NCBI GenBank assembly: GCA_041674205.1
Contig: JBAYWF010000003.1
Span: 47,221-111,220, forward strand
Reading direction: 5' to 3'
Origin: Parcubacteria group bacterium
GTDB taxonomy: Bacteria > Patescibacteriota > Minisyncoccia > Moranbacterales > UBA2206
Length of the DNA stretch: 64,000 nucleotides
Position 1 is the first letter of the stretch, and each line of letters opens with the position of its first letter. The notes under the pieces are model-generated. The model saw only the letters and a program-made list of their open reading frames with translations. It ran no database searches and was not told the DNA's origin. Of the stretch, positions 28,211 through 51,169 are shown piece by piece. Made by a program: the position numbers and the translations under genes.

Positions 28211-30007
28211 TTATCTTTTTAGAACCGCCAAAAAAGCGTCCGACGGGATGCTTACGCGGCCGATGCTTTTCATTTTCTTTTTTCCTTTTTTCTGTTTTTC
28301 CAAAAGTTTCCTTTTACGCGTGATGTCCCCGCCATACAGTCCGCTGGTCACGTCCTTGCGGAAAGCCTGGATGCTTTCGCGCGCGATCACTTTGCCACCG
28401 ATAGTCGCCTGCAGGGCGATTAGAAAATTCTGTTTCGGAATCGAGTTCTTCAGCTTCTCCACGATCGCCTTGCCTTCCGAATTGGCCTTTTCCCTCGGCA
28501 CGATGCGCGAAAAAGCGTCGAATTTTTCCCCCGCCACCAGGATATCAAGTTTCACCAGGTCATTCGGCCGGTAATCCTTGATTTCATAATTCATCGAAGC
28601 ATATCCGGAAGAAGCGCTTTTCAAATCATCATGCAGATTGGTGATGACATCCGTCAAGGGGCAATCGAACGTCAAGATGATCCGCTCACTGTCGATATAT
28701 TCCGTATTCGAATATTGCGCCCGCGTATTGCGCATCACTTCCATAATCGAACCCAGATACGCGGCTGGCGAAATGATGTCCAGCTTGGCATAGGGTTCAT
28801 ATATATTGTCGATCACCGACGCGTCCGGCATTTCGGTAGCGGAATAAATTTTTATCCGTTCAGTTTTCCCTTTTATTTCCACTTCATACACGACGCTCGG
28901 CGTGGTGATGGTCGGACTGATTTCAAATTCCCGCTCCAGCCTGGATTGGATGATTTCCAAATGCAGCATCCCCAGGAACCCGCAACGGAAACCGCGCCCC
29001 AAGGCCTGGCTCGACTCCGGCTCGAATTCAAAGGCCGCGTCATTGAGCTTCAACTTGTCCAAGGCGTCGCGCATAAAATTGTAGTCGTCGCCCTCGATCG
29101 GATAAAAAGAAGCATACACCATCGGCGTCACTTTCTTGTAGCCTGGCAAACTTTCCACCTTGCCGCGGTACCCGGCCAAGGTGATCGTATCGCCCACCCG
29201 GCAATATTCCACGCTTTTGAAACCGGTAGCCAGATAGCCGATATCGCCGGCCGTCAGATTGCCTATCTTTTGCATATCCGGTTTGAAATAACCCACTTCC
29301 ACCACATCGCTGTCGGCCATTCCCGCCATCATCGCCACTTTGTCATCACGTTTCACACTGCCATCCAACACCCGCACATACGCCACCACGCCTTTGTACG
29401 TATCGTATTTCGAATCGAAAATAAGCGCCCGCAACGGTTTGCCGGCATCGCCCTTCGGATACGGTATGGTCTTGACGATTTCTTCCAAGAGTTTGTCCAC
29501 GCCCAAACCGGTTTTGCCGGAAACTTCAAAAATATCTTCTTCTTTGCAACCCAGGACATGGATGATTTCTTTCTTCACTTTCGGCGCGTCGGCGTTCGGC
29601 AAATCCACCTTATTGACCACGGGAATGATTTCCAAACCTTGCTCGATGGCCAGATACAGATTGGACAAGGTCTGTGCCTGCACGCCCTTGGTCGCATCCA
29701 CCAGAAGCACCGCGCCCTCCACCGCCGCCAAAGACCGCGAAACCTCGTAGCCGAAATCCACGTGTCCCGGCGTATCAATCAGGTTCAAGACATATTTTTC
29801 GCCGTTGAGTTCGTAATCCATCCGCACCGGCTGCAGCTTGATGGTGATGCCGCGCTCCCGCTCCAAATCCATCTGATCCAAGAGTTGCGCCTTCATATTC
29901 CTTTGTTCCACGGTGTGGGTCAGCTCTAAAAGCCGATCCGAAAGGGTCGACTTGCCGTGGTCTATGTGGGCGATGATACAGAAATTCCTAACGTTCTTTT
30001 GGCTCAT
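28211..30007 (-). CDS. lepA: elongation factor 4 (LepA)
   Basis: MSQKNVRNFCIIAHIDHGKSTLSDRLLE ... 598 aa translational GTPase with LepA C-terminal domain. Confidence 0.95.
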   Translation of the reverse strand: MSQKNVRNFCIIAHIDHGKSTLSDRLLELTHTVEQRNMKAQLLDQMDLERERGITIKLQPVRMDYELNGEKYVLNLIDTPGHVDFGYEVSRSLAAVEGAVLLVDATKGVQAQTLSNLYLAIEQGLEIIPVVNKVDLPNADAPKVKKEIIHVLGCKEEDIFEVSGKTGLGVDKLLEEIVKTIPYPKGDAGKPLRALIFDSKYDTYKGVVAYVRVLDGSVKRDDKVAMMAGMADSDVVEVGYFKPDMQKIGNLTAGDIGYLATGFKSVEYCRVGDTITLAGYRGKVESLPGYKKVTPMVYASFYPIEGDDYNFMRDALDKLKLNDAAFEFEPESSQALGRGFRCGFLGMLHLEIIQSRLEREFEISPTITTPSVVYEVEIKGKTERIKIYSATEMPDASVIDNIYEPYAKLDIISPAAYLGSIMEVMRNTRAQYSNTEYIDSERIILTFDCPLTDVITNLHDDLKSASSGYASMNYEIKDYRPNDLVKLDILVAGEKFDAFSRIVPREKANSEGKAIVEKLKNSIPKQNFLIALQATIGGKVIARESIQAFRKDVTSGLYGGDITRKRKLLEKQKKGKKKMKSIGRVSIPSDAFLAVLKR

Positions 30008-31257: not shown

Positions 31258-31695
31258 TTAGTTGTTAGCATTTGCCAGATAATCGCCTATGATTATTTTA
31301 TGATCAAACGCAAGTTCGTCCGGCAAGCCATCCAGCGGAAACCATTCGTATCCAAGGGCGTCATCACCGGCTTTTGGACTGCCTGAAATTGTCACAGCAT
31401 ATGCCATATCTATGACTTGTTTGGGATGCCTATTCGGTTTGCCGTAAACCCCGATAAGCTTGATCGACTCGACTGCGACGCCTAATTCCTCTTTGACTTC
31501 CCTTATGACGGATTCCTCCGTCGATTCATCCCATTCCACATATCCGCCAGGCAAAGCCCAAAAACCTTTGAACGGATTCGCGCCTCTCTTGATAAATAAA
31601 ATCCTATCATCTTTTATGATGACCGCGTCAATCGAAACGCCTCGATTGTTGAAGCGACCGCATTCAGGACATTGTTCATCGTTTGATAATTCCAT
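31258..31695 (-). CDS. Nudix hydrolase with N-terminal CxxC zinc ribbon
   Basis: CPECGRF ... GFWALPGGYVEWDESTEESVIREVKEELGV Nudix box. Confidence 0.85.
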   Translation of the reverse strand: MELSNDEQCPECGRFNNRGVSIDAVIIKDDRILFIKRGANPFKGFWALPGGYVEWDESTEESVIREVKEELGVAVESIKLIGVYGKPNRHPKQVIDMAYAVTISGSPKAGDDALGYEWFPLDGLPDELAFDHKIIIGDYLANANN

Positions 31696-31726
31696 TTTGT
31701 TTAAATAAAAATTATAGATTCGCAGA

Positions 31727-31987
31727 TCACAGAAACCAGTAATTGATGATGCCGAACGTGGTTATAATGGTAAAAATAATCGTCGTAATCAAAATCCCGA
31801 TTTGCCCGGCTTGTTTCCAGGCCTTCCATGATGAATATAGCCAAAACGGCTGGGCAAGCAAATTCATTATTAATCCATATTCCGGAAATTTTAACGAAGT
31901 CGCTATTTGCGCGCCGATAGTCAATCCGGGAAGGGCGAATTGGGCGACCTTATTGAATAATTTTCCTTTTGTTGCCGCTTCGTTCAT
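31727..31987 (-). CDS. small hypothetical membrane protein
   Basis: two TM helices; start moved to MNEAATKG (31987) because an attC-like L'/R' motif occupies the upstream part of the longer ORF. Confidence 0.4.
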   Translation of the reverse strand: MNEAATKGKLFNKVAQFALPGLTIGAQIATSLKFPEYGLIMNLLAQPFWLYSSWKAWKQAGQIGILITTIIFTIITTFGIINYWFL

Positions 31988-32157
31988 AAAATTTTTTAAA
32001 AATATTTTGTCTGACGCATCTGCATATCTGAAGTTTAATCCCGACTTTATCACCCAAATCTTAACATGATTAGGGACGCTTGTTAATAGACTGATTTGGA
32101 ATATTCACCAGGCTACGGGATTAAATTCAGGTGGAGCCATTAAGAATTTTAGCTTTT

Positions 32158-32570
32158 TTATATTTCGTTTTCTATGTTTCTAAAATAATTTTTTGCCTCC
32201 AACAATGATAAATTTTCTACCATATTTGATTTATTGACCCATTTAGCTTTAACGATGTCTTTAGCCGTAGGATGGATATGTTCTTGCTCGGATTTGAAAA
32301 GAAACATATAAGTATCGATAATGACCGGATTATCGTTAGCTGCTCGTCTCTTGTAGTTGGGCAATGTTTTTATCAAGGTCAGCTTTTTAATTCCTGCTTC
32401 TTCATAAATTTCCCGTTTCGCCGCATCAATGATATCTTCACCTTTTTCAATGCCTCCTTTTGGAAATCCCAAGCATCAACATCTTTCATTAAAACTAAAA
32501 CGACTTGATTTTTATTATTTACAACTATTCCTCCAGCACTATCAATTATTTTATAGTCGGTTTCATTCAT
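32158..32570 (-). pseudogene. Nudix hydrolase interrupted by a -1 frameshift in a G-run
   Basis: ORFs 32379-32570 and 32158-32472 together encode ...VLVLMKDVDAW | GFPKGGIEKGEDIIDAAKREIYEEAGIK; restoring one G in the GGG run at about 32468-32470 gives a contiguous Nudix box. Confidence 0.7.
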
Positions 32571-32707
32571 AGAGATTGATAAAAATTTGGGTGAAAGAAA
32601 TTTATCCTCTTGATTATTATTTCCCGAAAGCGAAAAAAAGTTTAGATCAAGATGGATTCCTATAACCGCGTATACAGGTGTTATGCGCTGTCGTAATTTT
32701 TTTCGTG

Positions 32708-33157
32708 TTAAAGCAGCCCCTCATTGATTAACTGGAATGATGATTTGCCGGTATGCTTTTTCGTAATCACCTCGCCTGGGTTTTTCAAAATGTCTTTTAT
32801 ACGATCGACTTGTTTTGGTGAAGTATTGCGTGGGATGTCCTTAAAGGCAAAATATTTTATTTTATCAGCCTCTGGATTCAGAACGATTTCTCCGCCGATG
32901 ACTTTGCAGATGTATTGGAACACAATCTCATCCTTATCTGGCTTGCTGTATACGCCTGTTAGCCGCTCAACAACCGTGTTGAATCCAGTCTCTTCTTTTA
33001 CCTCTCGAACGACGCATTCCCAAGGTGTCTCACCATGTTCAAGGGTGCCTCCGGGGAGATTCCACAAATCGCAATCAGTCCTATGGCAAAATAAAATACG
33101 GTTTTCATCGTCGAATATAGCCGCGAATACGCCAATTGTGAAAGTCGGTTTGGACAT
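32708..33157 (-). CDS. Nudix hydrolase
   Basis: WNLPGGTLEHGETPWECVVREVKEETGF Nudix box. Confidence 0.85.
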   Translation of the reverse strand: MSKPTFTIGVFAAIFDDENRILFCHRTDCDLWNLPGGTLEHGETPWECVVREVKEETGFNTVVERLTGVYSKPDKDEIVFQYICKVIGGEIVLNPEADKIKYFAFKDIPRNTSPKQVDRIKDILKNPGEVITKKHTGKSSFQLINEGLL

Positions 33158-33190
33158 TGTTTATTAGATAAAAAATTACGATCACATACA

Positions 33191-33340
33191 ACGTATGCGC
33201 ATCATCCGAAGTTGCACCATGGATTATTGATTAAATTTGTTAATATCGCTTTACTTGATTATATCACTAAACTTGCCATTTCGTCAGCGCAATTTGAGAG
33301 AAGAAATTTTGCACTCCTTGAAATATAATTACGCAAAATT
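33191..33340 (-). repeat. conserved about 150-bp intergenic module (copy 1), shared with 39503-39651; carries a promoter-like TGACGA-18-TATAAT on the minus strand
   Basis: about 85-90% identity to the 39503-39651 copy over GAAGTTGC.C..TGGATTA.TTGATTA.TTTGTTAATATCGCTTTACTTGATTATATCACTAAACTTGCC.TTTCGTCAGCGCAATTTG. Confidence 0.8.
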
Positions 33341-33403
33341 CCTGACTCGTCGTAACTATCATTAAATCGAAATCTGGACGTAGCCTAATAAGCTGTTTTG
33401 TAA

Positions 33404-34024
33404 CTATTTATTTTTGGCGATTAAAAAAATAATTCCCGTGTTTACATATTCTTGTATGGGATTTTCTTCAAGGACAAAATCCAGTATCTCAAATTTATGC
33501 TCAGAAAGCATGTCTTTTATTTCTTTTTCGCAGTAGTAAGAATAGAATTTTTTTGCGTTATCATATCTGTCGTCCGTGATTACTTTTTCGCCACTGCCTT
33601 TTTTTAAATTTATATATAATACGCCACTGGCTTTAAGCACCCTTTTCATTTCCTTCAGTGCTTTTAAGGCATCAACTTTATTCAGATGCAATAATGTGGC
33701 GCTGCACCAGACGCCATCGAACGATTTGTTCTTAAAATTTAAATCTAACATATTCATCACATGGAACTTGGCATCTGGGACGGATGATCGGGCTTTATCG
33801 ATCATTTTTTGAGAAAGGTCGATTCCAGTCGTAACGTATTTGTTAGAAGCAAAAAAATCCGTATCGCGACCAAAGGCGCAACCGATATCCAAAACGCTTC
33901 CATTTTTAGGCAGATACGAAATGAATTTGTCGAGCCAATCTTTGTTTTGCAAGTTCGTCGTGTTTTTAATGTATTCGTCGACATTTTGATCGTAGAAATT
34001 AATAGTATTTTTAATATAATCCAT
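33404..34024 (-). CDS. class I SAM-dependent methyltransferase
   Basis: motif I VLDIGCAFGRD and methyltransferase type-11 spacing. Confidence 0.85.
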   Translation of the reverse strand: MDYIKNTINFYDQNVDEYIKNTTNLQNKDWLDKFISYLPKNGSVLDIGCAFGRDTDFFASNKYVTTGIDLSQKMIDKARSSVPDAKFHVMNMLDLNFKNKSFDGVWCSATLLHLNKVDALKALKEMKRVLKASGVLYINLKKGSGEKVITDDRYDNAKKFYSYYCEKEIKDMLSEHKFEILDFVLEENPIQEYVNTGIIFLIAKNK

Positions 34025-34393
34025 AGATAATTACAAAAAGTTTATTGAGCGGAACCAGATATGCGGCGTTATGCGATGTGGCAAAAGCCGACTCCGATAA
34101 GAAAAAATTGGAAGATTGATTAAAAGTCGGGCTCTCTCTTCAAGTTTTTGCTACTTCTTTATTATATATCAACAGAAGAAAAGGGCAAAAATTCGGGTAA
34201 AAAATGAAATTCAAGTCCAGAAAATACAAGAGGGAATTTCATTTTTTCCTCATATTCGGTGTTGTGCGATGTAAATTTTTTATCTCAATATTTATTGAAC
34301 TAAACTCTGTTTTATTACTAAGAAAATTTGATTTTTGTTTTGGATTTTGGGCAGATGGGTCAGGGGTGAATGCCCAAAATTCAAAACTCCTTA

Positions 34394-35026
34394 TTAAGTT
34401 TTGTTCATCAATCTCAATATTTCCTTTGGGTTATTTGCCACCCTTGTATTACCAACCATACTTTTATCAAGTCCCCAGCCATAATCTACTAATATAATAT
34501 TATCATCATTTATACCAGCTTTTTTTGAAACTTCGTAATCAATAGCTCTATCGCCTATGGATACGATTTCATCTGATGAATAGTTATTCTCTTGTATCAA
34601 ACCTATCATCATATCGCTCTTGCGGGTTTTTTGGTCTGCTCCGCAATAAATTTTTTCGAATAAAATTGTTAGGCCAAATTTTTCTATTTTAGGCAGAATT
34701 TCATTACTATGGGAAGCAGACACCAGATATAATTTATATTTTGTAGCAAGCTCCTTTATCACATTTTCTATATCCTCAAAAACACCATGCTCCATTTTGA
34801 CAATTTCTCTTAAATAAATAGAATTGGCTTCTTCAAAATCTTTCTCTTGGATGCCTAAATTTTTCAAACACTCTTTGTAATTATAGCCATAAACAACCCT
34901 AAATTCTTCCAATGTTTTTGGGCAAGAAACTTTGAAGCGCCTACAAATCATTTTATAAACTTCAAAGACGCTCACAAAAGAGTCTATTATCACACCGTCA
35001 TAATCAAATATAATCGCTTTTATCAT
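34394..35026 (-). CDS. HAD-IA family hydrolase (phosphatase)
   Basis: MIKAIIFDYDGVIIDS motif I DxD, motif II S/T, C-terminal GDRAIDYEVSKKAGI motif IV. Confidence 0.85.
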   Translation of the reverse strand: MIKAIIFDYDGVIIDSFVSVFEVYKMICRRFKVSCPKTLEEFRVVYGYNYKECLKNLGIQEKDFEEANSIYLREIVKMEHGVFEDIENVIKELATKYKLYLVSASHSNEILPKIEKFGLTILFEKIYCGADQKTRKSDMMIGLIQENNYSSDEIVSIGDRAIDYEVSKKAGINDDNIILVDYGWGLDKSMVGNTRVANNPKEILRLMNKT

Positions 35027-35167
35027 AAAAAATACAAATTAAATAGTTTACGTAGCCTCAGCGGAGAAAACACCTTTTCCCCCTCTATAAATAAATTAAA
35101 AATCAAATTTTCTGTCCTTAATTAAATCACAAATCTAAAAATTACCACCAAGATAAAAAAATTATTT

Positions 35168-35244
35168 CGCCGAACGTTTCGCAATATCCGACGTTCGCCT
35201 TAGCGAATGTGGCTTTAGCCCTTGCGGATATTGAGTGTTAGCTG
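35168..35244 (-). repeat. attC-like palindromic site (R'' CAGCTAAC - AC - L'' TCAATATCCGC ... L' GCGAATATCCGAC-like ... R' GTTCGGCG)
   Basis: 9-bp L''/L' complementarity CAATATCCG/CGGATATTG, inner palindrome CGAACGT/ACGTTCG; lies between the IMPase-3 and HAD cassettes. Confidence 0.55.
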
Positions 35245-35329
35245 ATGTATTAAAAATTCTTTTCGCTTTTGTCGTTAGACAAAAGATTTAATTGGGGCAA
35301 ATTTATTTTTTTAATCCTTCCGCTGTGTT

Positions 35330-36157
35330 TTATTTCTTTACAATTCCCAACAACTGCTTAACAATTTTAGCGTTACCTGCAACATAATCTCCTTCATAAA
35401 CATCGCATTCTTTTCCGTCTAAATTAGTCATTATCGCACCGGCTTCAGCGGCAATAAGGCTGCCGGCTGCAACATCCCATGGTTTTTGTTTCAATCTGAT
35501 TAAACCGTCAATTCGACCGCATGCCAAATAACAAAACTCGGCAGCCATTCCACCTTTTCCAAATGTTTCATCAACAATGTGGGTGCTGTCGTAAAATCCA
35601 AAATATTTAACATTGGGAATTGAATTCATTATTCTTTTATCAAGTCCACCAATTTCATCATCTTCACTTCCAGGATAAGTTGAGTAAGTTATAATTGCTT
35701 TTGATAAATCATAGGCTTTGCTTGTGTGTATAGGTTCATTGTTTAAGGTTGCGCCCTTTCCTTTCTCAGCAACAAACATTTCATCTGTTTTTGGTAAATA
35801 GATGACTCCCAAAATAATTTCGCCTTTATATTCTAGCCCAATGGACACCGAAAAAGTATTTCGCTTAGCAATGTAGTTATTTGTACCATCAATTGGATCA
35901 ATAATCCATTTATATTCTGAAATTAACACACTTTTACCTAGTTCTTCACCTAAAAAAGCATGCTTGGGAAAAGATACTTTAATTATTTCAACAATTTTTT
36001 GTTCTGATGCTCTGTCTATTTTTGTTGTCGGATTAGCATGTACGTCATATTGAATTTCGTCAGATTTTACATTGTCAATATTTTCCATCAAAAATCTTCC
36101 AGCTTCTTTGGCTGCTTTTATTGCGGTTTGTCTGAGATTGTTTTCGTTGTTTGTCAT
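35330..36157 (-). CDS. inositol monophosphatase family protein (third, divergent paralog)
   Basis: WIIDPIDGTNNYIAKRNTFSVSIGL metal-binding motif; 275 aa. Confidence 0.85.
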   Translation of the reverse strand: MTNNENNLRQTAIKAAKEAGRFLMENIDNVKSDEIQYDVHANPTTKIDRASEQKIVEIIKVSFPKHAFLGEELGKSVLISEYKWIIDPIDGTNNYIAKRNTFSVSIGLEYKGEIILGVIYLPKTDEMFVAEKGKGATLNNEPIHTSKAYDLSKAIITYSTYPGSEDDEIGGLDKRIMNSIPNVKYFGFYDSTHIVDETFGKGGMAAEFCYLACGRIDGLIRLKQKPWDVAAGSLIAAEAGAIMTNLDGKECDVYEGDYVAGNAKIVKQLLGIVKK

Positions 36158-36228
36158 GGCCTTGGATTAAAAAAATAAATTTGCCTAGATTGAATGCCCG
36201 CTAAGGCCGAAAATAATTTTTTAATATT

Positions 36229-36357
36229 TCAGCTAACGTATCCAAATATCTGAAGTTTGCTGGAGTGTAACGAAAGCAAATTTGGGAGAGAAAATTTTTC
36301 TTACCTTTGAAATTTAAAAGTGAAAAATTTTTGAACCAGATATTTGGTGTTGTCTGA
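36229..36357 (-). repeat. attC-like site (R'' CAGACAAC - AC - L'' CCAAATATCTG - 78-nt centre - L' CAGATATTTGG - ATAC - R' GTTAGCTG)
   Basis: perfect 11-bp L''/L' inverted repeat about 85 nt apart; R boxes fit RYYYAAC/GTTRRRY loosely; stop codon of upstream Nudix 12 nt before R''. Confidence 0.65.
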
Positions 36358-36386
36358 TGTTTTGTCTGCCGTCGTTTTTAAAATCA

Positions 36387-36833
36387 CTAAGCCGCCCAGC
36401 CGAACTCGCCATAATGCACATTCTTGTTAATATTCTCTAGGGCAAGTTTTACTTCTGGTAAAATGTTGTTCGGAAGACCGTCCATATTATACCATTTAAG
36501 CTCGTCACATTTATCAAGTTCCATATTGGTAATATTACCAGCCCATTTTTCAGTACGAAGATAAATATCAAAATATTCGCGATCAGATGCTAATCGATGC
36601 ATAACATGAACCACCTCGAGGTCTTCCGGACTTACCTTAATCCCAGCTTCTTCACTGGCTTCTCGGATAATGCATTGTTTCGTTGTTTCACCACCATCAA
36701 GATGTCCTGCCACCAAGCTATAATTGCCGTCTTGATAGCCAGTGTTGAAGCGTCTGAGAAGTAAAACTTGCCCGTCCTTAATCAGCACAAGGTAGGCGGC
36801 GACGTATGGTTTAAATCTTTCTTTATCAGACAT
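36387..36833 (-). CDS. Nudix hydrolase
   Basis: GNYSLVAGHLDGGETTKQCIIREASEEAGIK Nudix box. Confidence 0.85.
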   Translation of the reverse strand: MSDKERFKPYVAAYLVLIKDGQVLLLRRFNTGYQDGNYSLVAGHLDGGETTKQCIIREASEEAGIKVSPEDLEVVHVMHRLASDREYFDIYLRTEKWAGNITNMELDKCDELKWYNMDGLPNNILPEVKLALENINKNVHYGEFGWAA

Positions 36834-36869
36834 AGTAATGTTGGATTATTAATTAGGCTGACAAAATTT

Positions 36870-37094
36870 CAGATAACGATTAAGAATATCTGAAGTCCTG
36901 CGCTTTTGCTTCTATGCACAAAATCTTAAATATTCCTGACATTTTGTTAATTTTATTATACCCCAAATTACAGCAAAACTGAAAAGCGCGGGATCTGCCT
37001 GCCTGCCTGCCGGTAGGCAGGGGAGAGAAAAATCTATCCCCCTTTTAGTTTTAATTGTGGTAAATTTTTAGAACCTCATATTTGGTGTTCTGCG
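36870..37094 (-). repeat. attC-like site (degenerate; R'' CGCAGAAC ... R' GTTATCTG) with internal GC hairpin CCTGCC/GGCAGG
   Basis: same ACATC-R''-AC-L'' ... L'-spacer-R'-AAA layout as neighbouring sites but weaker L pairing. Confidence 0.45.
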
Positions 37095-37102
37095 ATGTTT
37101 AA

Positions 37103-37624
37103 TTAAGCGGCTTTTAACAACCGCAACATTTTTGTAGGCCATTCAGTATTGCCCCGTTCTATTTCTTCGTGGAAAAATTTTATCATGAGCTGTTTTGGCT
37201 CGTCGGAAAAATCACAATGCTCAATTTCAGGCCAAACTTCTTTATACCACAATCCAATATTGTCATGGCGTAAATTGCACGCACCGCCGTTTGGATCGCG
37301 TTCAATAAACAAAATCCGATTTATATGGTTAGTGACTGAAGCACCAAGACACTGGATGCAAGGCTCAAGCGTACTGTAAAGAGAAATAGCCTTACCATGC
37401 TTCCAAGCTTCACTCAAAAGCTGACTATTTTTTATTATCAAACTATTTTCAGCATGATTGACGAAGGATTTTTGTTTATTGATTTCGTTGCCAGCAGTGT
37501 CAACGATTTTTTCATCAATAGCCAAAACAGCACCCACGGGATAATTGCCAGCCTTGTAAGTTTCACGGGCAATACTGATGGCCGCCTCAAAACATTGTTT
37601 ATCAAATAGACTTAATTCTTTCAT
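37103..37624 (-). CDS. CMP/dCMP-type zinc deaminase family protein
   Basis: HAENSLI (HxE) and TLEPCIQC (PCxxC) zinc-binding motifs of the cytidine/deoxycytidylate deaminase fold. Confidence 0.75.
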   Translation of the reverse strand: MKELSLFDKQCFEAAISIARETYKAGNYPVGAVLAIDEKIVDTAGNEINKQKSFVNHAENSLIIKNSQLLSEAWKHGKAISLYSTLEPCIQCLGASVTNHINRILFIERDPNGGACNLRHDNIGLWYKEVWPEIEHCDFSDEPKQLMIKFFHEEIERGNTEWPTKMLRLLKAA

Positions 37625-37691
37625 GAGATGTAGCTTAATTCAATTTCACTTAACGTTTAGGAATATCAGAAGTTTTTGGCTCTCTTTATTA

Positions 37692-38297
37692 TTATTTGGG
37701 ACACTTTTCGTAGAATACCTTAAAACTTTTTTCTTCGCCATATTTCGTACTCATGCCATTGAGCAATTTTTGAAGGTCTATATCGAAAAATTTTCTATGC
37801 GAATAAGCAGGGTCGCCAAGCGTAACAACAACATTTTTATTTTTTACAGTGACAGAATCTACCACGCAGCTATGGCCATAATTGACCCCGCTTCCAGGTT
37901 TAGCGTAAGCAGCCATGTTAAACGAAACAATAATGTCATTACCAGCTTTTAAGTTTTCGCATAGAAAATTTTTTATGTCGCCTATCTTCGAAGGGTAATG
38001 ACGCTCAACAGCCAGAGATATTTTATGCTTCTTCAAAAATTGCGGTATTTTATAGACCCACGTGCCATAGCCAAGTCTGTCTTGCGGCAGTTTTCCCGCA
38101 ACTTTCATTTTTATATTGAACAATCGTTGATCTTCTGGGGCAATAACAACGCCCAAATCTTTGGCCATTTCATCCTGCGAAATCAAATTCAACCCGCGGC
38201 GCAACATTACCCATTGAATACAGCAAGGCAAGCAACAATATTTTTGCTGGGTAAGCGGGATATAACTTGGCATTATGCGGACTTTATTTGTTGTCAT
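37692..38297 (-). CDS. putative papain-fold cysteine peptidase (C39-like)
   Basis: candidate catalytic Cys in LTQQKYCCLPCCIQWV (Gln upstream as oxyanion residue) and His in NYGHSCVVDSV, resembling the C39 HFVVL motif; weak. Confidence 0.35.
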   Translation of the reverse strand: MTTNKVRIMPSYIPLTQQKYCCLPCCIQWVMLRRGLNLISQDEMAKDLGVVIAPEDQRLFNIKMKVAGKLPQDRLGYGTWVYKIPQFLKKHKISLAVERHYPSKIGDIKNFLCENLKAGNDIIVSFNMAAYAKPGSGVNYGHSCVVDSVTVKNKNVVVTLGDPAYSHRKFFDIDLQKLLNGMSTKYGEEKSFKVFYEKCPK

Positions 38298-38394
38298 AAA
38301 ATTCCCTGGATAATAATTTCAAAATCTGAAGCGTGCAGCATTTTAATGGGACGTAGTGGGATCAGATTACCATATCCTGCGATACAAGCCTATT

Positions 38395-38799
38395 TTAACT
38401 CTCAACTTCTCGCAGGAACTCTTTTAGAGGTTCTACTATGTCGGTCAAATCGACATATTCAATGATTTTATCAGCGACCCCCTTGGCAGTGTCCCGAAGC
38501 TGGACCCCTTTATTGATTATTATGATGATCTTTTTGCCGGCACCAAAGGCGATTCCCGCCTCAAGAGCCCGTCCGGTAGATGAGGTTGATAGGTCGATCA
38601 ATAAAGCATCGCACTCAAGGACTTCTTCCTTGGCGCGATCCATCAATTCCCGTGGATCATAAAACATCTTTTGATAATTTTCAACGTCACGGATAAAACA
38701 AAAGTCATCGAACCCGGCTTCTTTTACCAAGTTGCACAAGTTTTCTATTTCGGATTTATTTTCACCCTCTTTGAAGGGGGCGGTGATAAAAATTTTCAT
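38395..38799 (-). CDS. nucleoside 2-deoxyribosyltransferase-like (PF05014/DUF4406-type Rossmann) protein
   Basis: N-terminal KIFITAPF (cf. KIYLAGPF) and C-terminal DALLIDLSTSSTGRALEAGIAFGAGKKII with the conserved Glu. Confidence 0.6.
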   Translation of the reverse strand: MKIFITAPFKEGENKSEIENLCNLVKEAGFDDFCFIRDVENYQKMFYDPRELMDRAKEEVLECDALLIDLSTSSTGRALEAGIAFGAGKKIIIIINKGVQLRDTAKGVADKIIEYVDLTDIVEPLKEFLREVES

Positions 38800-38827
38800 A
38801 GCGAGAGAGTTAAAAATAGACTTATTT

Positions 38828-38916
38828 CACATAACGTTTCTCGATATCCGACGTTTCAATGAAGTGAAACGAATTGAAATGTGGCTTTAGTCCTCGCGGA
38901 TATTGAGTGTTAGATG
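38828..38916 (-). repeat. attC-like site (R'' CATCTAAC with embedded TAA stop - AC - L'' TCAATATCCGCG ... inner hairpin CGTTTCA/TGAAACG ... L' CGGATATCGA - GAAAC - R' GTTATGTG)
   Basis: R'' is a perfect RYYYAAC; L''/L' 9-bp complementarity; stop codon of Nudix 38910-39488 lies inside R''. Confidence 0.65.
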
Positions 38917-39461
38917 ATGTTTTTGTGTGACACTATTCCACTTAGATATAATAACAATGGCATCAGAGAAGTGCCATCACTAATCTCATTATTAGCGATC
39001 AGTTCTTTTACTTCACTTAATGAAAGCCAATGGATTTCCTTGACTTCGTCTGTGTCGATTTCGGCCTGCTCGCCAGTTTCAACATTACCTAAAATTATGT
39101 GAACATTTTGATTCGACATTCCGTTCGAAGGATTGTAAGAGTAAAGAAGTTTTAATGCCCTCGCTTTAAAACCAACTTCCTCCATTACTTCTCGTTCAGC
39201 GGCTAATAAAATATCTTCACCATTTTCAACGCCACCAGCAGGCAATTCCCATTCAATCTTTTGCGTGGTATAGCGCAAAGACTTGATAAAACAAATTTCG
39301 CTTTTGGCGTTTAGCAATAATACGGCTATTGACTCCTTCGGGTAATCAAGTTGATGATATTTTTCTATAATTTTTCCAGAAGGCATTAAAACTTTGTCGA
39401 TATATAGATTTATCCATTGGCTTTCATAGATTGGTTTTCGATCTAATCGTTTTGGTAGCAT
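38910..39461 (-). CDS. Nudix hydrolase (ADP-ribose pyrophosphatase-like)
   Basis: WELPAGGVENGEDILLAAEREVMEEVGFK Nudix box; start set to ATG MLPKRL (39461); longer ORF begins with GTG at 39488. Confidence 0.85.
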   Translation of the reverse strand: MLPKRLDRKPIYESQWINLYIDKVLMPSGKIIEKYHQLDYPKESIAVLLLNAKSEICFIKSLRYTTQKIEWELPAGGVENGEDILLAAEREVMEEVGFKARALKLLYSYNPSNGMSNQNVHIILGNVETGEQAEIDTDEVKEIHWLSLSEVKELIANNEISDGTSLMPLLLYLSGIVSHKNII

Positions 39462-39496
39462 ATATTTATAATTTAGAGAGTGTCGCACAAAAATTT

Positions 39497-39681
39497 CATC
39501 TAACGTATCGGCACATGCGAAGTTGCGCCGTGGATTAATTGATTATTTTGTTAATATCGCTTTACTTGATTATATCACTAAACTTGCCGTTTCGTCAGCG
39601 CAATTTGGGTTAAAAAAAATTTGCATTCCTTATAAAATCTAATTGCGCAAATTTTTTGAACCGCATGTGCCGTGTTATCGG
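39497..39681 (-). repeat. attC-like site containing the conserved promoter module (R'' CCGATAAC - AC - L'' GGCACATGCG ... L' CGCATGTGCC - GATAC - R' GTTAGATG)
   Basis: perfect 10-bp L''/L' complementarity with a sequence unlike the L boxes of other sites (covariation); R' is a perfect GTTRRRY. Confidence 0.65.
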
Positions 39682-39708
39682 ATGTAAAATTTTTTTAATT
39701 CACTTTTA

Positions 39709-40515
39709 TCAAATAGATTGGGATTTAACAACCTCCAATAACTTTGCATGCAGGGCTGGAGACGACGCAAGAAAGGTGAAATTGTCTTGTGGTTGAGAAA
39801 GGGCATTTGAATAATCAATCGTATTTCCGAAAAAATCTGTATAAATTCCGCCCGCTTCCTCAATAATTATCTGCTGGGCAACATTATCCCATATTTTGCT
39901 CGTGCGATTTAAAAAAGCACCATAATTTCCTTTGGCTACCATAGCAATATCAAAAACACTATTACTGCTTCTTAAGTTTCTAATATTCAAAACTATTTCA
40001 GCTAGCAGCGCACACTCATCTCTTGTAAACTTCGGATTTTCTTGGTGACCATCAATTCCATACGCTACAAGCGCTTTTTTCAAATCGCCTTCTTTGGTAA
40101 TGCAGATTTTTTCGGAATTACAATATGCTCCTTGCCCTTTCTCGGCCACATAAATTTCGGAAAAGTTTGGCAAAGCTAGTCCACCAGCAATCGGAACATT
40201 ATTTTTTAACAATCCAAGCATTATCCCGTACAGCGGCGTTCCGTTGGCGAAGTTGCTAGTGCCGTCAATTGGATCAATGACCCATGTAAAAACTGACTTT
40301 TTATCAATCACTCCAGCTTCCTCATCAATGATGTTATGCTCCGGAAATTTGGCTTGGATTTTTCCAATCAATAATTTACCGATTTCTAAGTCAGTTTCCG
40401 TAAGTACCTGATTATTATCATCTTCCTTGGTGATGCCAGCAACTTTGCCAAAACTTTTTCTTGCAACGTCAGAAGCTTCTTTCAGAGATTGAGTAATGAA
40501 ATCCTTGTATTCCAT
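39709..40515 (-). CDS. inositol monophosphatase family protein, cassette-borne paralog of 20545-21366
   Basis: WVIDPIDGTSNFANGTPLYGIMLGL; lower GC than the core copy; flanked by 35-bp inverted repeats 39672-39708 / 40521-40556. Confidence 0.9.
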   Translation of the reverse strand: MEYKDFITQSLKEASDVARKSFGKVAGITKEDDNNQVLTETDLEIGKLLIGKIQAKFPEHNIIDEEAGVIDKKSVFTWVIDPIDGTSNFANGTPLYGIMLGLLKNNVPIAGGLALPNFSEIYVAEKGQGAYCNSEKICITKEGDLKKALVAYGIDGHQENPKFTRDECALLAEIVLNIRNLRSSNSVFDIAMVAKGNYGAFLNRTSKIWDNVAQQIIIEEAGGIYTDFFGNTIDYSNALSQPQDNFTFLASSPALHAKLLEVVKSQSI

Positions 40516-40548
40516 AATGTTAAAAAAGTGAATTAAAAAAATTTTATT

Positions 40549-40633
40549 TCCGATAACTCGTTTATGCGCGAAATTTGTTTCGTATAATGCTCGATAATTT
40601 GTTTGTTATGCTAAATTATTGCGCGTTATCCGG
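40549..40633 (-). repeat. attC/attI-like boundary site between murJ and first cassette (CCGGATAAC ... GTTATCGG)
   Basis: R''-like CCGGATAAC-GC-GCAATAATTT and R' GAGTTATCGG separated by about 70 nt, immediately after the murJ stop. Confidence 0.4.
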
Positions 40634-40689: not shown

Positions 40690-42339
40690 TCACATCCGAC
40701 TCACTTCATCCGTGCTTTCTAAAATGACTTTATTGCCTTTGAATATCTTGCGGGTCAGGGAATTTCTGAACAAGACGTATTCTTCCAGCTTCAAGAAATG
40801 GCTGATGCCGGTAAAAATCACGAATCCCAGGGCCAGCGGAACGGTCAATTGGGTGAAAACTCCCAAAAAAGTATCCAAATCGACCACCGAAGCGACCGCG
40901 TATTTCGCGCCTTGTATCCCGAGGCCGGCCGCGAAGGAAGCGAAAGCGATTTTCGATACCGACAGGATGATGTTTTTATCATCCAAACTCTCGAAGCGAG
41001 CGCGCAAGAAAAAAAGTAACAGCATCATCTGCACCACGTTGGCCAAAGAAAACGCGATCGCCAAACCGACGATCTGGACGCGGCCGATGAGCATTATGAC
41101 CGCCAGGATATTCACGGCCTCCGTAGCGATGGCGATATAGAAAGGGGTCTTGGTGTCTTGCAAGGCATAGAACGAACGGGCCAGGAGCTGCACCGCGCTT
41201 TGCGCGAACAGGCTGAGCGCCAAGATGCCCAAACATTGGAAGGTCAGGATCGTATCGTTCCAATCGAATTTTCCGGCTCCCAACACGACCCGCACGATCT
41301 GCGCCCGCAAGACGACCATAAACACACTGAGTGGGATGACGAAAAACATTATCTGGCGGAAAGTTTCCGAAAAAGCCCTTATGAAATTTTCCTTCTCGTC
41401 ACGCGCGGCATACGTTGACAAGACGGGAAAAACCGCGATAGCGAAAGATATCCCGAACACGCTGAGCGGCACGCTGGCCAAGTTTTGGGAAAAATTGAAC
41501 ACCGCCAAACTGCCGGCGGCCAGCGTCGAAGCGAAGACCGTGATCACCATCAGATTGAACTGGTTGATCGCGATGCCGGTCATCCGCGGCAGCATCAGGG
41601 TGAAAACCTTGCGCACATTCCGGTTTTGCCAGGCCGCCGCCAATCCCCATCGGTGGACATAGCCCAATTTCCGCACCGTCGTATATTGCAGGACCATATG
41701 CATCAAGGCGCCGAAGACCACGCCCCACGCCAGCCCGATCGGCCCCATCAGCCGGACAAACACGGTGATGCCCAGAATGATGCCGATATTATACAGGAGC
41801 GGCGCGATCGAATACACTAGAAAATGTTTCATCGAAGTCAGGACACCACCCATAATCCCGCTGACACCCAATAAAATCGGGCTTAAGAACATTATCCTGG
41901 TAAACAGGACCGCGCTTTCCATCTTTTCCGGGGAAAAACCCGGAGTGATGATCCGCATCAAAAGCGGCGCGGCGATCGCACAGGCCAGCGAAATGATGAT
42001 GATTAAAAACAAAGACAGGTTCATAATCCCGTTGGTCAGCCGCCAAGCTTCGTCATTATCCCCGTCCTTGCTTCGCAATCCGGTGAAAACCGGAATGAAA
42101 GCGGCGCTCATCGAACCCAGGATAAGCAAGCTATAAATCAGATCCGGAATCCGGAAGGCCGCATAATAGACATCCAGCGTGTCCCCCGCTCCGAAATTCG
42201 AAGCCAGCAGGCGATCGCGCACAAGCCCGAGCAGATTGCTCACAAGGCCCGCGACCGTGATTACGAAAGCCGCCGAAATGACCGATTCGGTCGGCCGGGA
42301 TTTCAATATGAAATTAGCTTTGAAAATTTTATCCATCAT
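40690..42339 (-). CDS. murJ: lipid II flippase MurJ (MviN)
   Basis: 549 aa, 14 TM; N-terminal SAAFVITVAGLVSNLLGLVRDRLLASNFGAGDTLDVYYAAFRIPDLIYSLLILGSMSAAFIPVF is canonical MurJ. Confidence 0.9.
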   Translation of the reverse strand: MMDKIFKANFILKSRPTESVISAAFVITVAGLVSNLLGLVRDRLLASNFGAGDTLDVYYAAFRIPDLIYSLLILGSMSAAFIPVFTGLRSKDGDNDEAWRLTNGIMNLSLFLIIIISLACAIAAPLLMRIITPGFSPEKMESAVLFTRIMFLSPILLGVSGIMGGVLTSMKHFLVYSIAPLLYNIGIILGITVFVRLMGPIGLAWGVVFGALMHMVLQYTTVRKLGYVHRWGLAAAWQNRNVRKVFTLMLPRMTGIAINQFNLMVITVFASTLAAGSLAVFNFSQNLASVPLSVFGISFAIAVFPVLSTYAARDEKENFIRAFSETFRQIMFFVIPLSVFMVVLRAQIVRVVLGAGKFDWNDTILTFQCLGILALSLFAQSAVQLLARSFYALQDTKTPFYIAIATEAVNILAVIMLIGRVQIVGLAIAFSLANVVQMMLLLFFLRARFESLDDKNIILSVSKIAFASFAAGLGIQGAKYAVASVVDLDTFLGVFTQLTVPLALGFVIFTGISHFLKLEEYVLFRNSLTRKIFKGNKVILESTDEVSRM

Positions 42340-47802: not shown

Positions 47803-48906
47803 TCAATTCGATTCTTTGAATTTCCCGTATTCACTCTCTATATATTCCTTTATTCTAGCCTTAAAAAGGCTTTTGTCAAATTTCTCGGCCTGCGCACGGA
47901 TATAGGCCGGATCATAGTCGGCATCATTGAATTTGCCGATCGCCTCGACGATGGCTGGCACGGTCTGTTCTTCAAAAAACAAGCCCATTTTCCCCTCTTC
48001 TATATGTTCCGGGATATCACCCCCGCGGAAAGCGATTATCGGACGGCCTGAAGCCATCGCTTCGATAGCCACTATGCCGAAATCCTCCTCTTGCGGGAAA
48101 ATGAACGCCCGGCACTGCGCATAATATCCGGGCAATTCTTCGTCCGAAACGCGCCCTAGGAATTCGATATTGCCTTCCGCCATTTCTTTCAATTTCTGAT
48201 ATTCCGGACCCCGGCCGATTATCTTCAACTGCAAGCCCGTCCGGTTGAAAGCCTGGACCACGAGATCCAATTTTTTGTACGCCATAAACCGTCCGACCAG
48301 GAGGAAATAGTCCCCGCGCTCCGCGCTGGTATAAAATCTCGTGATATCGATTGGCGGATTGATTACCGCGGAATCCCTTTTATAATATTTTTTTATCCTG
48401 CGCGCGATGAAATTGGAATTGGCGATAATCTTGTCCGGCCGATCGGCGCTGACACGGTCCCATATCCGGACATAGTTCATCACCAGCGGTATGAACCTTT
48501 TTATAATCGAAGGGAAATAGAAATCTTCGGTATATTTCTGGCAATCATCCCAAGCGAAACGCATCGGGGTGTGCATATAACAGACGTGCAGCGTTTCCGG
48601 ACCGGTGATGATGCCTTTGGCGAAACTGGATGAATCCGACAAGACGACATCATAGCCGGAAAAATCGAACTGTTCGATGGCCATCGGCATAAATTGCGGA
48701 AAAACCCGGTGCTTCTTCCGGGAAAACGGGATGTTCTGCAAAAAAGACGTCCGGATGTCCTTGCCTTCGAAAAAACCGTGCATCAGTTTTTTGTCATAGA
48801 CCAAGGTGTGGATCGGAGCGTCCGGAAAAACCTCCGTGAAACATTCCAGAACCTTTTCCGCCCCTCCGACTTGGACCAGATAATCGTGAACCAGTGCGAT
48901 TTTCAT
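47803..48906 (-). CDS. glycosyltransferase family 4
   Basis: MKIALVHDYLVQVGGAEKVLE N-terminus and EDFGIVAIEAMASGRPIIAF EX7E motif; start moved to 48906. Confidence 0.85.
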   Translation of the reverse strand: MKIALVHDYLVQVGGAEKVLECFTEVFPDAPIHTLVYDKKLMHGFFEGKDIRTSFLQNIPFSRKKHRVFPQFMPMAIEQFDFSGYDVVLSDSSSFAKGIITGPETLHVCYMHTPMRFAWDDCQKYTEDFYFPSIIKRFIPLVMNYVRIWDRVSADRPDKIIANSNFIARRIKKYYKRDSAVINPPIDITRFYTSAERGDYFLLVGRFMAYKKLDLVVQAFNRTGLQLKIIGRGPEYQKLKEMAEGNIEFLGRVSDEELPGYYAQCRAFIFPQEEDFGIVAIEAMASGRPIIAFRGGDIPEHIEEGKMGLFFEEQTVPAIVEAIGKFNDADYDPAYIRAQAEKFDKSLFKARIKEYIESEYGKFKESN

Positions 48907-51127: not shown

Positions 51128-51169
51128 TTATATTTTTACCTTTAAATAATTAAGTTTCAAATTATTATA

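Follow-up and report, generated by a model that had tools for sequence, protein, structure and literature searches.

We found that positions 38828-39681 of a 64-kb stretch of DNA, the window, from a Parcubacteria-group (CPR) chromosome probably comprise a Nudix cassette with both of its flanking recombination sites, lying within an integron-type cassette array; this assessment includes the recombination model outlined here. The array follows a box rule, by which the boxes on either side of an ORF pair with each other. Covariation in the hairpins, junctions that can be placed to the GTT triplet, the polarity of the arrays and their association with a recombinase were observed as well.

According to the model, cassettes would enter and leave by a tyrosine-recombinase exchange inside the invariant GTT of the R' box. 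Each integrated cassette would then carry half of its own R-box stem at either end, which would explain why the boxes around an ORF pair perfectly and the boxes within one site do not. Judging by relatives, the enzyme would belong to a Xer-like clade without the IntI insert that reads extrahelical bases, and a 4x1 internal loop on the cut arm would take the place of these bases. That this recombinase catalyses the exchange, which strand is exchanged and that the crossover occurs at exactly G|TT are inferences.

The box rule itself is ordinary integron biology; the system behind it is not. In the literature we found no description of integrons in Patescibacteria/CPR, only resistome surveys. Integron-type gene capture would extend to the candidate phyla radiation, and the arrays would represent a natural experiment on what integrons need, combining a recombinase without a supposedly essential domain with hairpins without the bases that this domain reads. 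The system bears on the open questions of how IntI evolved from Xer-like enzymes and how the recombined strand is selected, which sets the cassette orientation. A third open question, that of how cassettes acquire attC sites, is touched by the independent reassortment of ORF modules and interiors. Integron finders that search for the integrase would miss such platforms or call them CALINs.

Organisation of the array in the window

The partly decayed array spans about 31.3-40.6 kb (about 9 kb) and forms a low-GC island (GC 0.32-0.41 versus about 0.48 in the flanks). It starts at an attI-like site next to murJ, and its distal end is decaying. On the coding (-) strand a cassette consists of TTxxxxG, a short 5'UTR, the ORF, the R'' box CxxxxAAC, a hairpin and G. 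Box coordinates refer to the + strand, and the ORFs run along the - strand.

The attI-like site (40555-40632, - strand; coding strand ...CGCGCATAAACGA|GTTATCGGAAAT) is located directly downstream of murJ and has no recombinase gene attached. It shares ATTTCCGATAAC-TCGTTTAT with a site that precedes the recombinase start by about 80 nt in the related locus L035, and it resembles sites in loci L046, L004 and L126. Cassette 1 (39504-40556, - strand) is composed of TTATCGG, a 5'UTR, an IMPase-family ORF (39709-40515; Pfam Inositol_P), the R'' box CCGATAAC (S1 box, 40550-40557), the hairpin S2 and G. An exact look-up of the IMPase product returned no record. The attC-like site S2 (185 nt; 39497-39681, - strand) has CATCTAAC as left box (39497-39504) and GTTATCGG as right box (39674-39681). 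On the + strand, which is the bottom strand, it reads CATCTAAC-GTAT-CGGCACATGCG...CGCATGTGCCG-T-GTTATCGG, and the covariance model matches this strand only (52.5 bits, E 4e-11). The interior of S2 is 83-85% identical to positions 33190-33340 of the window and to the attC after the Nudix homologue of L125. A promoter-like element, CTGACG-18-TGnTATAAT, is also present in this long interior on the - strand (39569-39598).

Cassette 2 (38835-39503, - strand) contains TTAGATG, a 35-nt 5'UTR, the Nudix ORF from its ATG at 39461 to its stop at 38910 (Pfam NUDIX), the hairpin S3 and G. The stop codon TAA lies inside the R'' box CATCTAAC. The attC-like site S3 (89 nt; 38828-38916, - strand) is bounded by CACATAAC on the left (38828-38835) and GTTAGATG on the right (38909-38916) and reads CACATAAC-GTTT-CTCGATATCCG...CGGATATTGAG-T-GTTAGATG on the + strand, where the model scores 83.7 bits, compared with 12.3 bits on the - strand. 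Sites in L001 and L046 share 93% identity with its interior.

Next to S3 is a decayed stretch (37642-38834, - strand) with an NDT-like ORF (38395-38799), a degenerate site (about 38310-38390) and a C39-like ORF (37692-38297), the Pfam matches of both ORFs being weak. In this stretch GGATAAT...ATCCTGCG replaces AAC...GTT, and a truncated site is represented by its left half only (37642-37703, - strand; 18.1 bits). The adjoining unit (36865-37624, - strand) holds a dCMP-deaminase ORF (37103-37624; Pfam dCMP_cyt_deam_1) and the site S5 (36870-37094), with the box CAGATAAC at 36870-36877. The model accepts only 36865-36958 of S5 (27.6 bits), and the right halves of S5 (37021-37100) and S6 share 75% identity. 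Since the two arms are not complementary, we rejected S5 as one long attC and regard it as composite.

Two further intact units follow on the - strand. A Nudix cassette (36237-36876; ORF 36387-36833, Pfam NUDIX) has the attC S6 (36230-36356; left box CAGCTAAC, 36230-36237; right box GTTGTCTG, 36349-36356; 65.9 bits). An IMPase cassette (35175-36236; ORF 35330-36157, Pfam Inositol_P) has a conserved 68-nt 3' module (35246-35313) and the attC S7 (35168-35244; left box CGCCGAAC, 35168-35175; right box GTTAGCTG, 35237-35244; 70.2 bits); the stretch 35157-35313 is 92% identical to L033. The older, decayed part of the island (31258-35174, - strand) retains only half-sites and fragments. Pfam identified in it, all on the - strand, a HAD gene (34394-35026), a methyltransferase (33404-34024), Nudix genes (32708-33157 and 31258-31695) and a Nudix fragment (32158-32472). 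Site remnants at 34235-34273, 34043-34080, 33180-33340 and 32654-32692 are right-arm motif matches and weak model matches obtained with filters off.

With four intact and at least six degenerate sites between 32.6 and 39.7 kb, counted with the family-specific model, the array falls under the definition of a CALIN (at least two attC sites, integrase absent nearby). Neither tblastn nor Pfam detected a recombinase in the 64-kb window, and Pfam gave no integrase candidate in a second low-GC stretch at 50-60 kb. The ORF 47803-48969 was discarded as an integrase; tblastn against IntI1 was at chance level, and against the CPR recombinases it gave nothing. The recombinase of this array was either lost or never present in cis. 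A scan of viral contigs with the site pattern gave 0 matches and hence no sign of a phage vehicle. PADLOC returned only generic Nudix and methyltransferase matches for ten cassette proteins, so that an anti-phage role is not supported.

Box complementarity, hairpin structure and circularisation

The initial annotation had described each 5' box as the inverted complement of the R'' box of its own ORF, and all boxes were found at their positions. In the four window cassettes, the 5' GTTxxxxG is the reverse complement of the 3' CxxxxAAC of the same ORF, with matches of 8/8 for the IMPase (39709-40515), the Nudix (38910-39488) and the second IMPase (35330-36157) and of 7/8 for the second Nudix (36387-36833). 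Counting variable positions only, own boxes agree at 15/16 and boxes sharing a site at 6/16, which bears out the claim that the latter match less well. The complementarity was also said to extend into the cassette, and it does: 39479-39504 matches the reverse complement of 38909-38934 at 23/26 positions (Nudix), and the inverted repeat 39671-39707 versus 40560-40524 of cassette 1 is 92% over 37 nt. Complementary boxes around each ORF are textbook integron biology.

The rule was scored systematically in 102 model-defined sites with 61 adjacent pairs from the window and related loci. Own pairs matched at 4/4 in 33 of the 61 cases (mean 3.0), whereas pairs within one site did so in only 9 of 102 (9%; mean 1.86); for all left-by-right combinations the share was 6.8% (mean 1.80). 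The excess of own over within-site matches is significant (permutation p<1e-5), and the proposed difference between own and neighbouring boxes thus holds across the family. The rule is broken by the dCMP deaminase cassette (GTTCTGCG versus CACTTAAC) and by the HAD gene (GTTGTGCG versus CGCCGAAC), both of which adjoin degenerate or composite sites. The own-box rule alone leaves strand and polarity unfixed, and the polarity was taken from related loci. Insertion of a hairpin module into a palindromic target was rejected; it predicts complementary boxes within a site, and the boxes are not complementary.

The family model gave 106 matches across loci. The sites are 60-200 nt long, all lie on one strand within every locus, and 23/23 cassette ORFs have one orientation relative to them. 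Their AAC and GTT are invariant, and with R'', R' and L boxes and an imperfect hairpin they qualify as attC sites. The hairpin is made up of an L stem of 11 bp and a loop that varies between 20 and 150 nt, and in the family the complementarity reaches 10-30 nt past the R box. The spacer has 4 nt on one arm and 1 nt on the other (AAC-GWWT versus T-GTT), giving a 4x1 internal loop in which the bottom-strand AAC arm bulges by 3 nt; the L stem is without a bulge. It is 98.8% paired, with compensatory changes at 8/11 pairs, but the paired fractions owe part of their value to selection, since the 4x1 geometry was built into the pattern and the model with which the sites were collected.

In canonical attC sites, extrahelical bases are found close to L'' on the arm that faces the bottom-strand 5'-AAC-3', and both arms have a central spacer of about 5-6 unpaired nt (PMC5027507, PMC2095811). 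Extrahelical L-box bases are absent from the CPR sites, which depart from this pattern. In the attC of aadA1 from R100, our class 1 control, the bulges are on the GTT arm.

It had also been proposed that circularising a cassette in silico should restore a better-paired attC, and we were able to demonstrate this. When the four window cassettes were joined by their own ends, the hairpin gained 12-22 kcal/mol, while foreign ends gained nothing. The folding energies (circularised and integrated, in kcal/mol) were -57.3 and -35.6 for cassette 1, -33.7 and -15.5 for cassette 2, -31.9 and -19.4 for the Nudix 36387-36833 cassette and -32.8 and -17.4 for the IMPase 35330-36157 cassette. For 53 cassettes the fold changed by -10.1 kcal/mol with own ends and by -0.2 with foreign ends (Wilcoxon p=4e-9), a gain of about 10 kcal/mol across the family.

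Junctions and the linked recombinase in related loci

Ten homologous attI sites were found, each with a different first cassette. Across these junctions the attI side is conserved at 1.63 bits per position and the cassette side at 0.31, and the break between the two falls at AAC. What L035 and L034 share is a cassette with its hairpin, its body and the following box, up to the next AAC. Homologues of the window Nudix cassette in five contexts start with GTTxxxxG and end with xxxxAAC. Related contigs thus show alternative neighbours, as the initial annotation had anticipated, and they break exactly at the GTT/AAC triplet. The polarity is canonical, with the attC on the side of the cassette away from attI and the recombinase gene divergent. 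An inversion of the cassettes relative to the sites had been suspected because the bulge is on the 'wrong' arm; the attI junctions, the direction of the recombinase gene and the cassette that L035 and L034 have in common rule this out.

The claim that TTxxxx derives from the cassette's own site with a G|TT crossover is supported by the box statistics, the circularisation and the GTT junctions, but since GTT is invariant the boundary is known to the triplet and not to the exact phosphodiester. Moreover, the Nudix homologues bear four unrelated hairpin interiors, so that the notion of a cassette's 'own attC' is true of the boxes and not in every case of the interior. The same interior can stand between boxes that differ on both sides. 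Among 45 pairs of sites sharing interiors, the flank beyond R' is shared in 0 and the flank beyond R'' in 10. Linkage of interior and flank judged by box identity is mixed (9 versus 4 of the 45 pairs), and only flank similarity is asymmetric. Such interior swaps are not predicted by the integron mechanism alone, in which only the folded bottom strand is exchanged, at R', and replication resolves the product.

In 13 metagenome loci, all 27/27 model matches are upstream of a recombinase in one orientation (about 1e-8 by locus). The arrays occur in only one recombinase cluster (13/22 versus 0/17, p=8e-5). The array-linked enzymes are Xer-like tyrosine recombinases of 260-290 aa, divergent from the array, and in more than 12 loci a conserved attI lies 70-140 nt from the gene, always divergent. 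In L126, a homologue of the window Nudix cassette is about 370 nt from such a recombinase. Against TIGR02249 these proteins score 205-209 bits, under the cut-off of 265, and match in two separate pieces. VchIntIA and IntI1 have about 40 residues (VchIntIA about 199-238) without a counterpart in them, and the domain that IntI carries around patch III is missing. The best NCBIfam match, NF040815 XerA_Arch, is above its cut-off. Among solved structures VchIntIA is nominally top (158 bits), and XerA 4A8E follows in a single stretch (156 bits). None of about 130 loci yielded an IntI bearing the additional domain. Recombinases of candidate phyla form a 'Cand' subgroup of Xer-related enzymes with a presumed Xer function (PMC8138268).

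Alternative readings and relation to known systems

A further proposal, that CPR harbour a widespread, hitherto undescribed integron lineage whose Xer-derived recombinase never gained, or has lost, the IntI insert and which exchanges at both R'' and R', seems doubtful to us. If it were true, ORF modules (box to box) and hairpin interiors would reassort independently, and the lineage would be a living intermediate that links classical integrons with Xer/dif recombination, as well as a natural system in which attC sites attach to new genes. Modular exchange of Xer/dif type is unlikely in our view. Here both strands would be exchanged, one per box, and the mobile unit would be the box-to-box ORF module, moved by an IMEX- or pdif-like hijack of the host Xer; the 11-nt arms ATTTCxxxxAA and TTxxxxGAAAT/GATG would be bound by the recombinase and the interior would be extruded or form an 'overlap' region. 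The Xer-like matches of the recombinase, the Nudix breakpoints at R'' as well as R', the interiors common to sites that differ in both boxes and the attI core AAC-WA-GTTATATG, which looks like a collapsed site, agree with such an exchange. So do AAC-4nt-arm-6/8nt-inverted-arm palindromes upstream of many recombinase genes of the cluster, including the array loci L061, L068, L084 and L086, although neither the window nor L035 has them in its TCGTTTAT-type attI. However, the strong and consistent hairpin asymmetry indicates a strand-specific folded substrate, the L035/L034 cassette is inherited with its interior, and the flank sharing of 0 beyond R' and 10 beyond R'' is one-sided. The single site orientation throughout differs from pdif modules, and no GC-skew switch was found at the window attI-like site (40.5 kb).

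CALINs are common in genomes (PMC9024848), and the cassette anatomy, the box rule, the attI/attC logic and the nominal top rank of VchIntIA would fit an ordinary integron remnant whose canonical IntI is elsewhere and for which the Xer-like gene is a mere neighbour. We consider this very unlikely in view of the lack of a domain-bearing IntI among the loci, the fixed distance range and divergence of the Xer-like gene relative to attI, the restriction to one recombinase cluster and the hairpins without the extrahelical bases that canonical IntI reads. Strongly disfavoured, and the least probable of all, are non-mobile intergenic palindromes (REP-like elements, terminators or mRNA-processing stems) in the absence of site-specific recombination. 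The sites are indeed intergenic hairpins, some interiors and 3' modules have promoter-like or terminator-like elements, and in a transcript the two sides of an ORF could pair through their 20-37 bp of complementarity. Against this stand an ORF module found between differing neighbours with GTT/AAC breaks, a conserved attI followed by ten different cassette ends, the tight linkage of the sites to a recombinase gene and the low GC of the island. Rfam gave no family match over 30-41 kb, and the sites thus correspond to no described RNA motif.

The reading as an integrated integron cassette, put forward in the initial annotation, stands with regard to site-specific cassettes, the GTT boundary and polarity; the recombinase without the IntI domain and the mirrored hairpin depart from it, and the CPR arrays with their linked enzyme are not a canonical integron. 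As in class 1 integrons, the Vibrio cholerae superintegron and CALINs, co-oriented short ORFs are each followed by an imperfect hairpin with AAC/GTT boxes, the cassette boundary is in the GTT of R', and the boxes flanking an ORF are complementary because they form one stem in the circular cassette. An attI next to a divergent tyrosine recombinase is likewise shared, here in the relatives, while the window has the attI-like site only; stop codons often lie within R'', and integrase-less arrays decay. What sets the CPR arrays apart from integrons is a recombinase without the IntI-specific insert, an L box lacking extrahelical bases and an L stem of 11 bp. The spacer surplus is on the bottom-strand AAC arm, making the hairpin asymmetry the mirror image of class 1 attC, and the complementarity goes 10-30 nt beyond the R box. 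Hairpin interiors show high conservation among CPR lineages and are swapped independently of ORF modules.

Short Xer-type recombinases without accessory domains, such as XerS/difSL and XerH/difH, have their cognate site immediately upstream of the gene, and in single-strand integration of CTX phage a folded hairpin may present recombinase-binding duplexes. The array-linked recombinases are likewise of Xer type without an extra domain, and the short enzyme, the upstream cognate site and the folded hairpin resemble Xer/dif systems with a gene-side site, IMEX and CTX phage. The CPR sites differ from the 28-31 bp dif cores in being 60-200 nt hairpins with R and L boxes, in the many tandem cassettes, in the position of the window site at no GC-skew switch and in a crossover outside the palindromic arms. 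The pdif modules of Acinetobacter plasmids have 28-bp XerC/XerD cores in alternating orientation. They, too, are discrete modules of genes with Xer-type sites at their borders, which are shuffled from one replicon to another, but the CPR sites are co-oriented, long asymmetric hairpins and thus not pdif sites. Archaeal integrons share with the CPR arrays the occurrence outside classical bacterial hosts, the origin from MAGs and an attI that is semi-conserved across lineages (PMC9668308). For archaeal IntIs, the IntI-specific additional domain and canonical attC folding were reported (Ghaly et al. 2022, PMC9668308), whereas the CPR recombinases examined are without the additional domain.

Contents of the array and the site family

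Between 30.1 and 40.5 kb of the window, every ORF lies on the minus strand within a low-GC island (GC 0.32-0.41, compared with about 0.48 in the flanks), which is bordered by lepA (28211-30007) and murJ (40690-42339). The island ORFs encode small enzymes, namely five or six Nudix proteins, two IMPase-family proteins, and one each of HAD hydrolase, methyltransferase, dCMP deaminase, NDT-like and C39-like protein. The cargo (31258-40515) is mostly made up of small nucleotide and sugar-phosphate hydrolases, represented by the Nudix, IMPase, HAD, dCMP deaminase and NDT-like genes, and PADLOC gave no specific defence match for it. An additional IMPase-family gene is found outside the array (20545-21366).

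The intergenic repeat reads, on the plus strand, ATTTC-xxxx-AAC, GWWT, an 11-nt arm, a variable interior, the inverted arm, T and GTT-xxxx-GATG. We refer to the CxxxxAAC box 3' of an ORF as R'' and to the GTTxxxxG box as R'. The span 38828-39681 highlighted in the initial annotation is delimited by the left box of S3 and the right box of S2 and thus comprises one Nudix cassette and both flanking attC-like sites. Four window sites are intact (S2, S3, S6 and S7), S5 is composite, and several others are halves or fragments. No recombinase homologue was found anywhere in the 64 kb. The array looks integrase-less, within these 64 kb, and decaying, although a recombinase may be encoded elsewhere on the surrounding 318-kb ENA contig or in the genome. 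Around the attI-like site S1, the cumulative GC skew changes monotonically, which places this site away from a terminus. A second low-GC stretch (50000-60000) carries several ORFs without a Pfam match, a Nudix gene (56570-57034, plus strand), a SET-domain gene (51170-51667) and an AbiEii toxin gene (59814-60512); the attC model has no match there.

A search pattern derived from two window sites was used to scan one-genome-per-species contigs. It matched 43 loci, about 25 of which are true sites, nearly all in Patescibacteria/CPR MAGs and a few in MAGs labelled Gammaproteobacteria or Pseudomonadota. The latter (L004/L040, L009 and L030, with a Xer-like recombinase also in L004) are either misbinned CPR contigs or cases of transfer beyond CPR. 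In a covariance model built from 31 sites, AAC and GTT are invariant and the outer R-box positions are paired within the site only 40-60% of the time. The 11-bp L stem formed by the hairpin arms is 98.8% paired, a fraction that is partly a product of selection because the hairpin geometry was built into pattern, scanner and model alike. This does not apply to the conserved flanks, which were not selected for, or to the covariation, seen as compensatory changes at 8 of the 11 pairs. The model is strongly strand-specific (83.7 vs 12.3 bits for the same site on the two strands) and detected 106 sites in 39 sources, on a single strand within every locus.

Box complementarity and the cassette boundary

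It had been proposed that the box 5' of each ORF is the inverted complement of the R'' box following the same ORF. All the quoted boxes are present at the positions given, and the match across the ORF is 8/8 for Nudix 38910-39488, IMPase 39709-40515 and IMPase 35330-36157, and 7/8 for Nudix 36387-36833. At the four variable box positions, own boxes agree at 15/16 and boxes sharing a site at 6/16. The extended complementarity is likewise real, reaching 23/26 in the cassette of Nudix 38910-39488 and, in that of IMPase 39709-40515, 92% across 37 nt. Two cassettes of the array, carrying the deaminase and the HAD gene, break the rule, and both adjoin composite or degenerate sites.

For 61 pairs of adjacent sites, we scored the box 3' of site n against the box 5' of the following site. 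Such own boxes match at 4/4 positions in 33/61 pairs (mean 3.0), against 9/102 for boxes within one site (mean 1.86) and 6.8% of all left-by-right combinations (mean 1.80). This systematic scoring of own versus neighbouring boxes favours the former (permutation test, p<1e-5). In box-perfect pairs, complementarity continues past the 8-nt box for a median of 13.5 nt, compared with 1 nt in the control (95th percentile 7 nt). Integron cassettes are known for such own-box complementarity, which is one of their hallmarks.

In silico circularisation, as suggested in the initial annotation, was positive for the four window cassettes. Own ends joined between AA and C fold at -33.7 kcal/mol (integrated -15.5) for Nudix 38910-39488, -57.3 (-35.6) for IMPase 39709-40515, -32.8 (-17.4) for IMPase 35330-36157 and -31.9 (-19.4) for Nudix 36387-36833, while foreign ends joined to these cassettes gave no folding gain. 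Over 53 cassettes the change was -10.1 kcal/mol with own and -0.2 with foreign ends (p=4e-9).

Alternative neighbours were found as well. Homologues of the window Nudix protein at 80-88% identity occur in several, mostly short, CPR contigs, and in all five distinct contexts fetched the gene lies between model-detected sites. On the coding strand, similarity starts exactly at GTTxxxxG, the upstream hairpin arms being unrelated, and extends over a 35-nt 5'UTR, the ORF, a 3' extension and CxxxxAAC. In most contexts, with the exception of L129, the two boxes co-vary: GTTAGATG goes with CATCTAAC in the window and in L125, and (A)TTATGTG with CACATAAC in L126, where a 273-aa recombinase with 48% identity to the L035 enzyme is encoded about 370 nt from the cassette.

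The box rule is predicted by either polarity and does not by itself fix which side of an ORF carries its site. Arrays are present in two genome loci and in 13/80 metagenome loci fetched with the recombinase. The 27 model matches are all upstream of the recombinase gene and share one orientation (about 1e-8 by locus), so that the cassette ORFs are divergent from it. Ten loci have a common conserved sequence, WAGTTATATRCGAACTTRTTG..., on the recombinase side of the attI AAC (1.63 bits per position), whereas the opposite side is unrelated (0.31 bits) except for a generic ATTTC and a variable box. Window site S1 (AAC at 40555-40557), followed by murJ and no recombinase, belongs to the TCGTTTAT subtype, which is found beside the recombinase in L035 and L046. 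In a cassette common to L035 and L034, similarity covers the hairpin interior, the R'' box and the body and ends at the AAC of the next site. Together with the recombinase at one array end and an attI followed by varying cassettes, this places the hairpin on the cassette side away from attI. The boundary lies within the GTT of R', as in integrons; because GTT is invariant, it is placed to this triplet and not to a single phosphodiester.

Some further features of these loci were noted. Two contigs start within 4 nt of the attI AAC, and many metagenome contigs (among L044-L090) end at or 100-250 nt from the attI junction upstream of the recombinase (e.g. L054 position 4, L065 position 1), as would be expected if the first cassette varies between co-existing strains or if repeats break assembly. 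In the attI region of L126 (3660-3735), AAGTTCACATAAT occurs as a direct repeat, its two copies spaced by about 45 nt and placed immediately before the crossover, which is reminiscent of the integrase-binding repeats DR1/DR2 of attI1. Some L035 cassettes (3764-4443, 5238-7030) carry their ORF on the opposite strand with its own TTGACA-17-TAATGT promoter, and in the first L035 cassette, which has two genes, terminal inverted repeats of about 63 nt enclose a TrmB-like regulator gene and a 172-aa ORF. At L040 4529-4561, two attC sites whose boxes match (GTTATGTG and CACATAAC) are separated by only 44 nt, counted from GTT to AAC, and enclose an ORF-less 'cassette' with little beyond its terminal inverted repeats.

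The array-linked recombinase and canonical integrons

The best NCBIfam match of the recombinase is XerA_Arch, over the family cut-off. It fails the integron-integrase model (205-209 bits, cut-off 265, match split in two). Two solved structures match about equally, VchIntIA scoring 158 bits over two stretches and XerA of P. abyssi 156 bits over a single one. Residues ~199-238 of VchIntIA (IntI4) have no counterpart in the recombinase, and the same gap appears against IntI1 (a comparison sequence identical to IntI1 of plasmid R100). The missing stretch is the IntI-specific domain, necessary for activity according to Messier and Roy, as cited in PMC9668308. The attC extrahelical bases are specifically recognised by IntI (PMC2095811).

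The array-linked enzymes form one sequence cluster. Of the 22 cluster members with 1 kb or more of sequence upstream, 13 have arrays, against 0/17 outside the cluster (p=8e-5). In other members, some array loci included, the attI position is occupied by a palindrome of the form AAC-4nt-arm-6/8nt-inverted-arm. Candidate phyla are on record as having a 'Cand' subgroup of Xer-related recombinases, presumed to act as Xer (PMC8138268).

Canonical attC sites carry their extrahelical bases on the arm opposite the bottom-strand AAC (PMC5027507). As a control we used the aadA1 attC of R100, located downstream of aadA1 and divergent from intI1; in its bottom strand, the GTT arm shows bulges of single bases. 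In the CPR sites, placed in the same orientation, the L stem is free of bulges and the AAC arm bears one of 3 nt, so the asymmetry is mirrored. The proposed integron cassette reading is supported in that the cassettes are bounded in GTT, as circularisation and alternative neighbours both indicate, but not as a canonical integron, given a recombinase without the IntI domain and a mirrored hairpin. The unusual part is the platform, in which a CPR-wide attC family of mirrored asymmetry is tied to a Xer-like recombinase lacking that domain. No description of this platform was found in the literature searched, whose coverage was incomplete, and an earlier description is possible.

In L091 (13774-19231), two tandem units 3165 nt apart each consist of a 392-aa ORF, a 305-aa tyrosine recombinase and an adjacent AAC...GTT hairpin. 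They may represent a different mobile element using a related enzyme; a third, array-less recombinase is also present in L091.

Reassortment of modules at the box edges

Past R'', four Nudix homologues run into four unrelated hairpin interiors. The L125 interior is 83% identical to that of window site S2, which lies upstream of the Nudix gene and is part of the IMPase cassette. Conversely, 45 site pairs have interiors that are at least 85% identical, but just 9 of them share the R'' box and 4 the R' box, and their flanks resemble each other beyond R'' in 10 and beyond R' in none. The canonical linkage of an ORF to its downstream interior is thus real, yet often broken precisely at R''. The breaks may reflect gene conversion among near-identical interiors, or else occasional recombination of the other strand. 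A third possibility is Xer-like exchange of both strands, with the extruded interior acting as an overlap region.

The long interior of the S2 type is kept at 80-85% across loci (window 33190-33340, L032, L041 and L125). Within S2 (39569-39598, minus strand), a promoter-like CTGACG-18-TGnTATAAT is aimed at the next cassette, which suggests that some attC sites supply a promoter to the downstream cassette. Moreover, conserved non-coding hairpin modules lie between ORF stop and R'' (35246-35313 and 34324-34397), with 91-92% identity to stretches of L033/L041 and L042 whose upstream ORFs differ; this hints at a '3' module plus attC' unit that could be joined to different genes.
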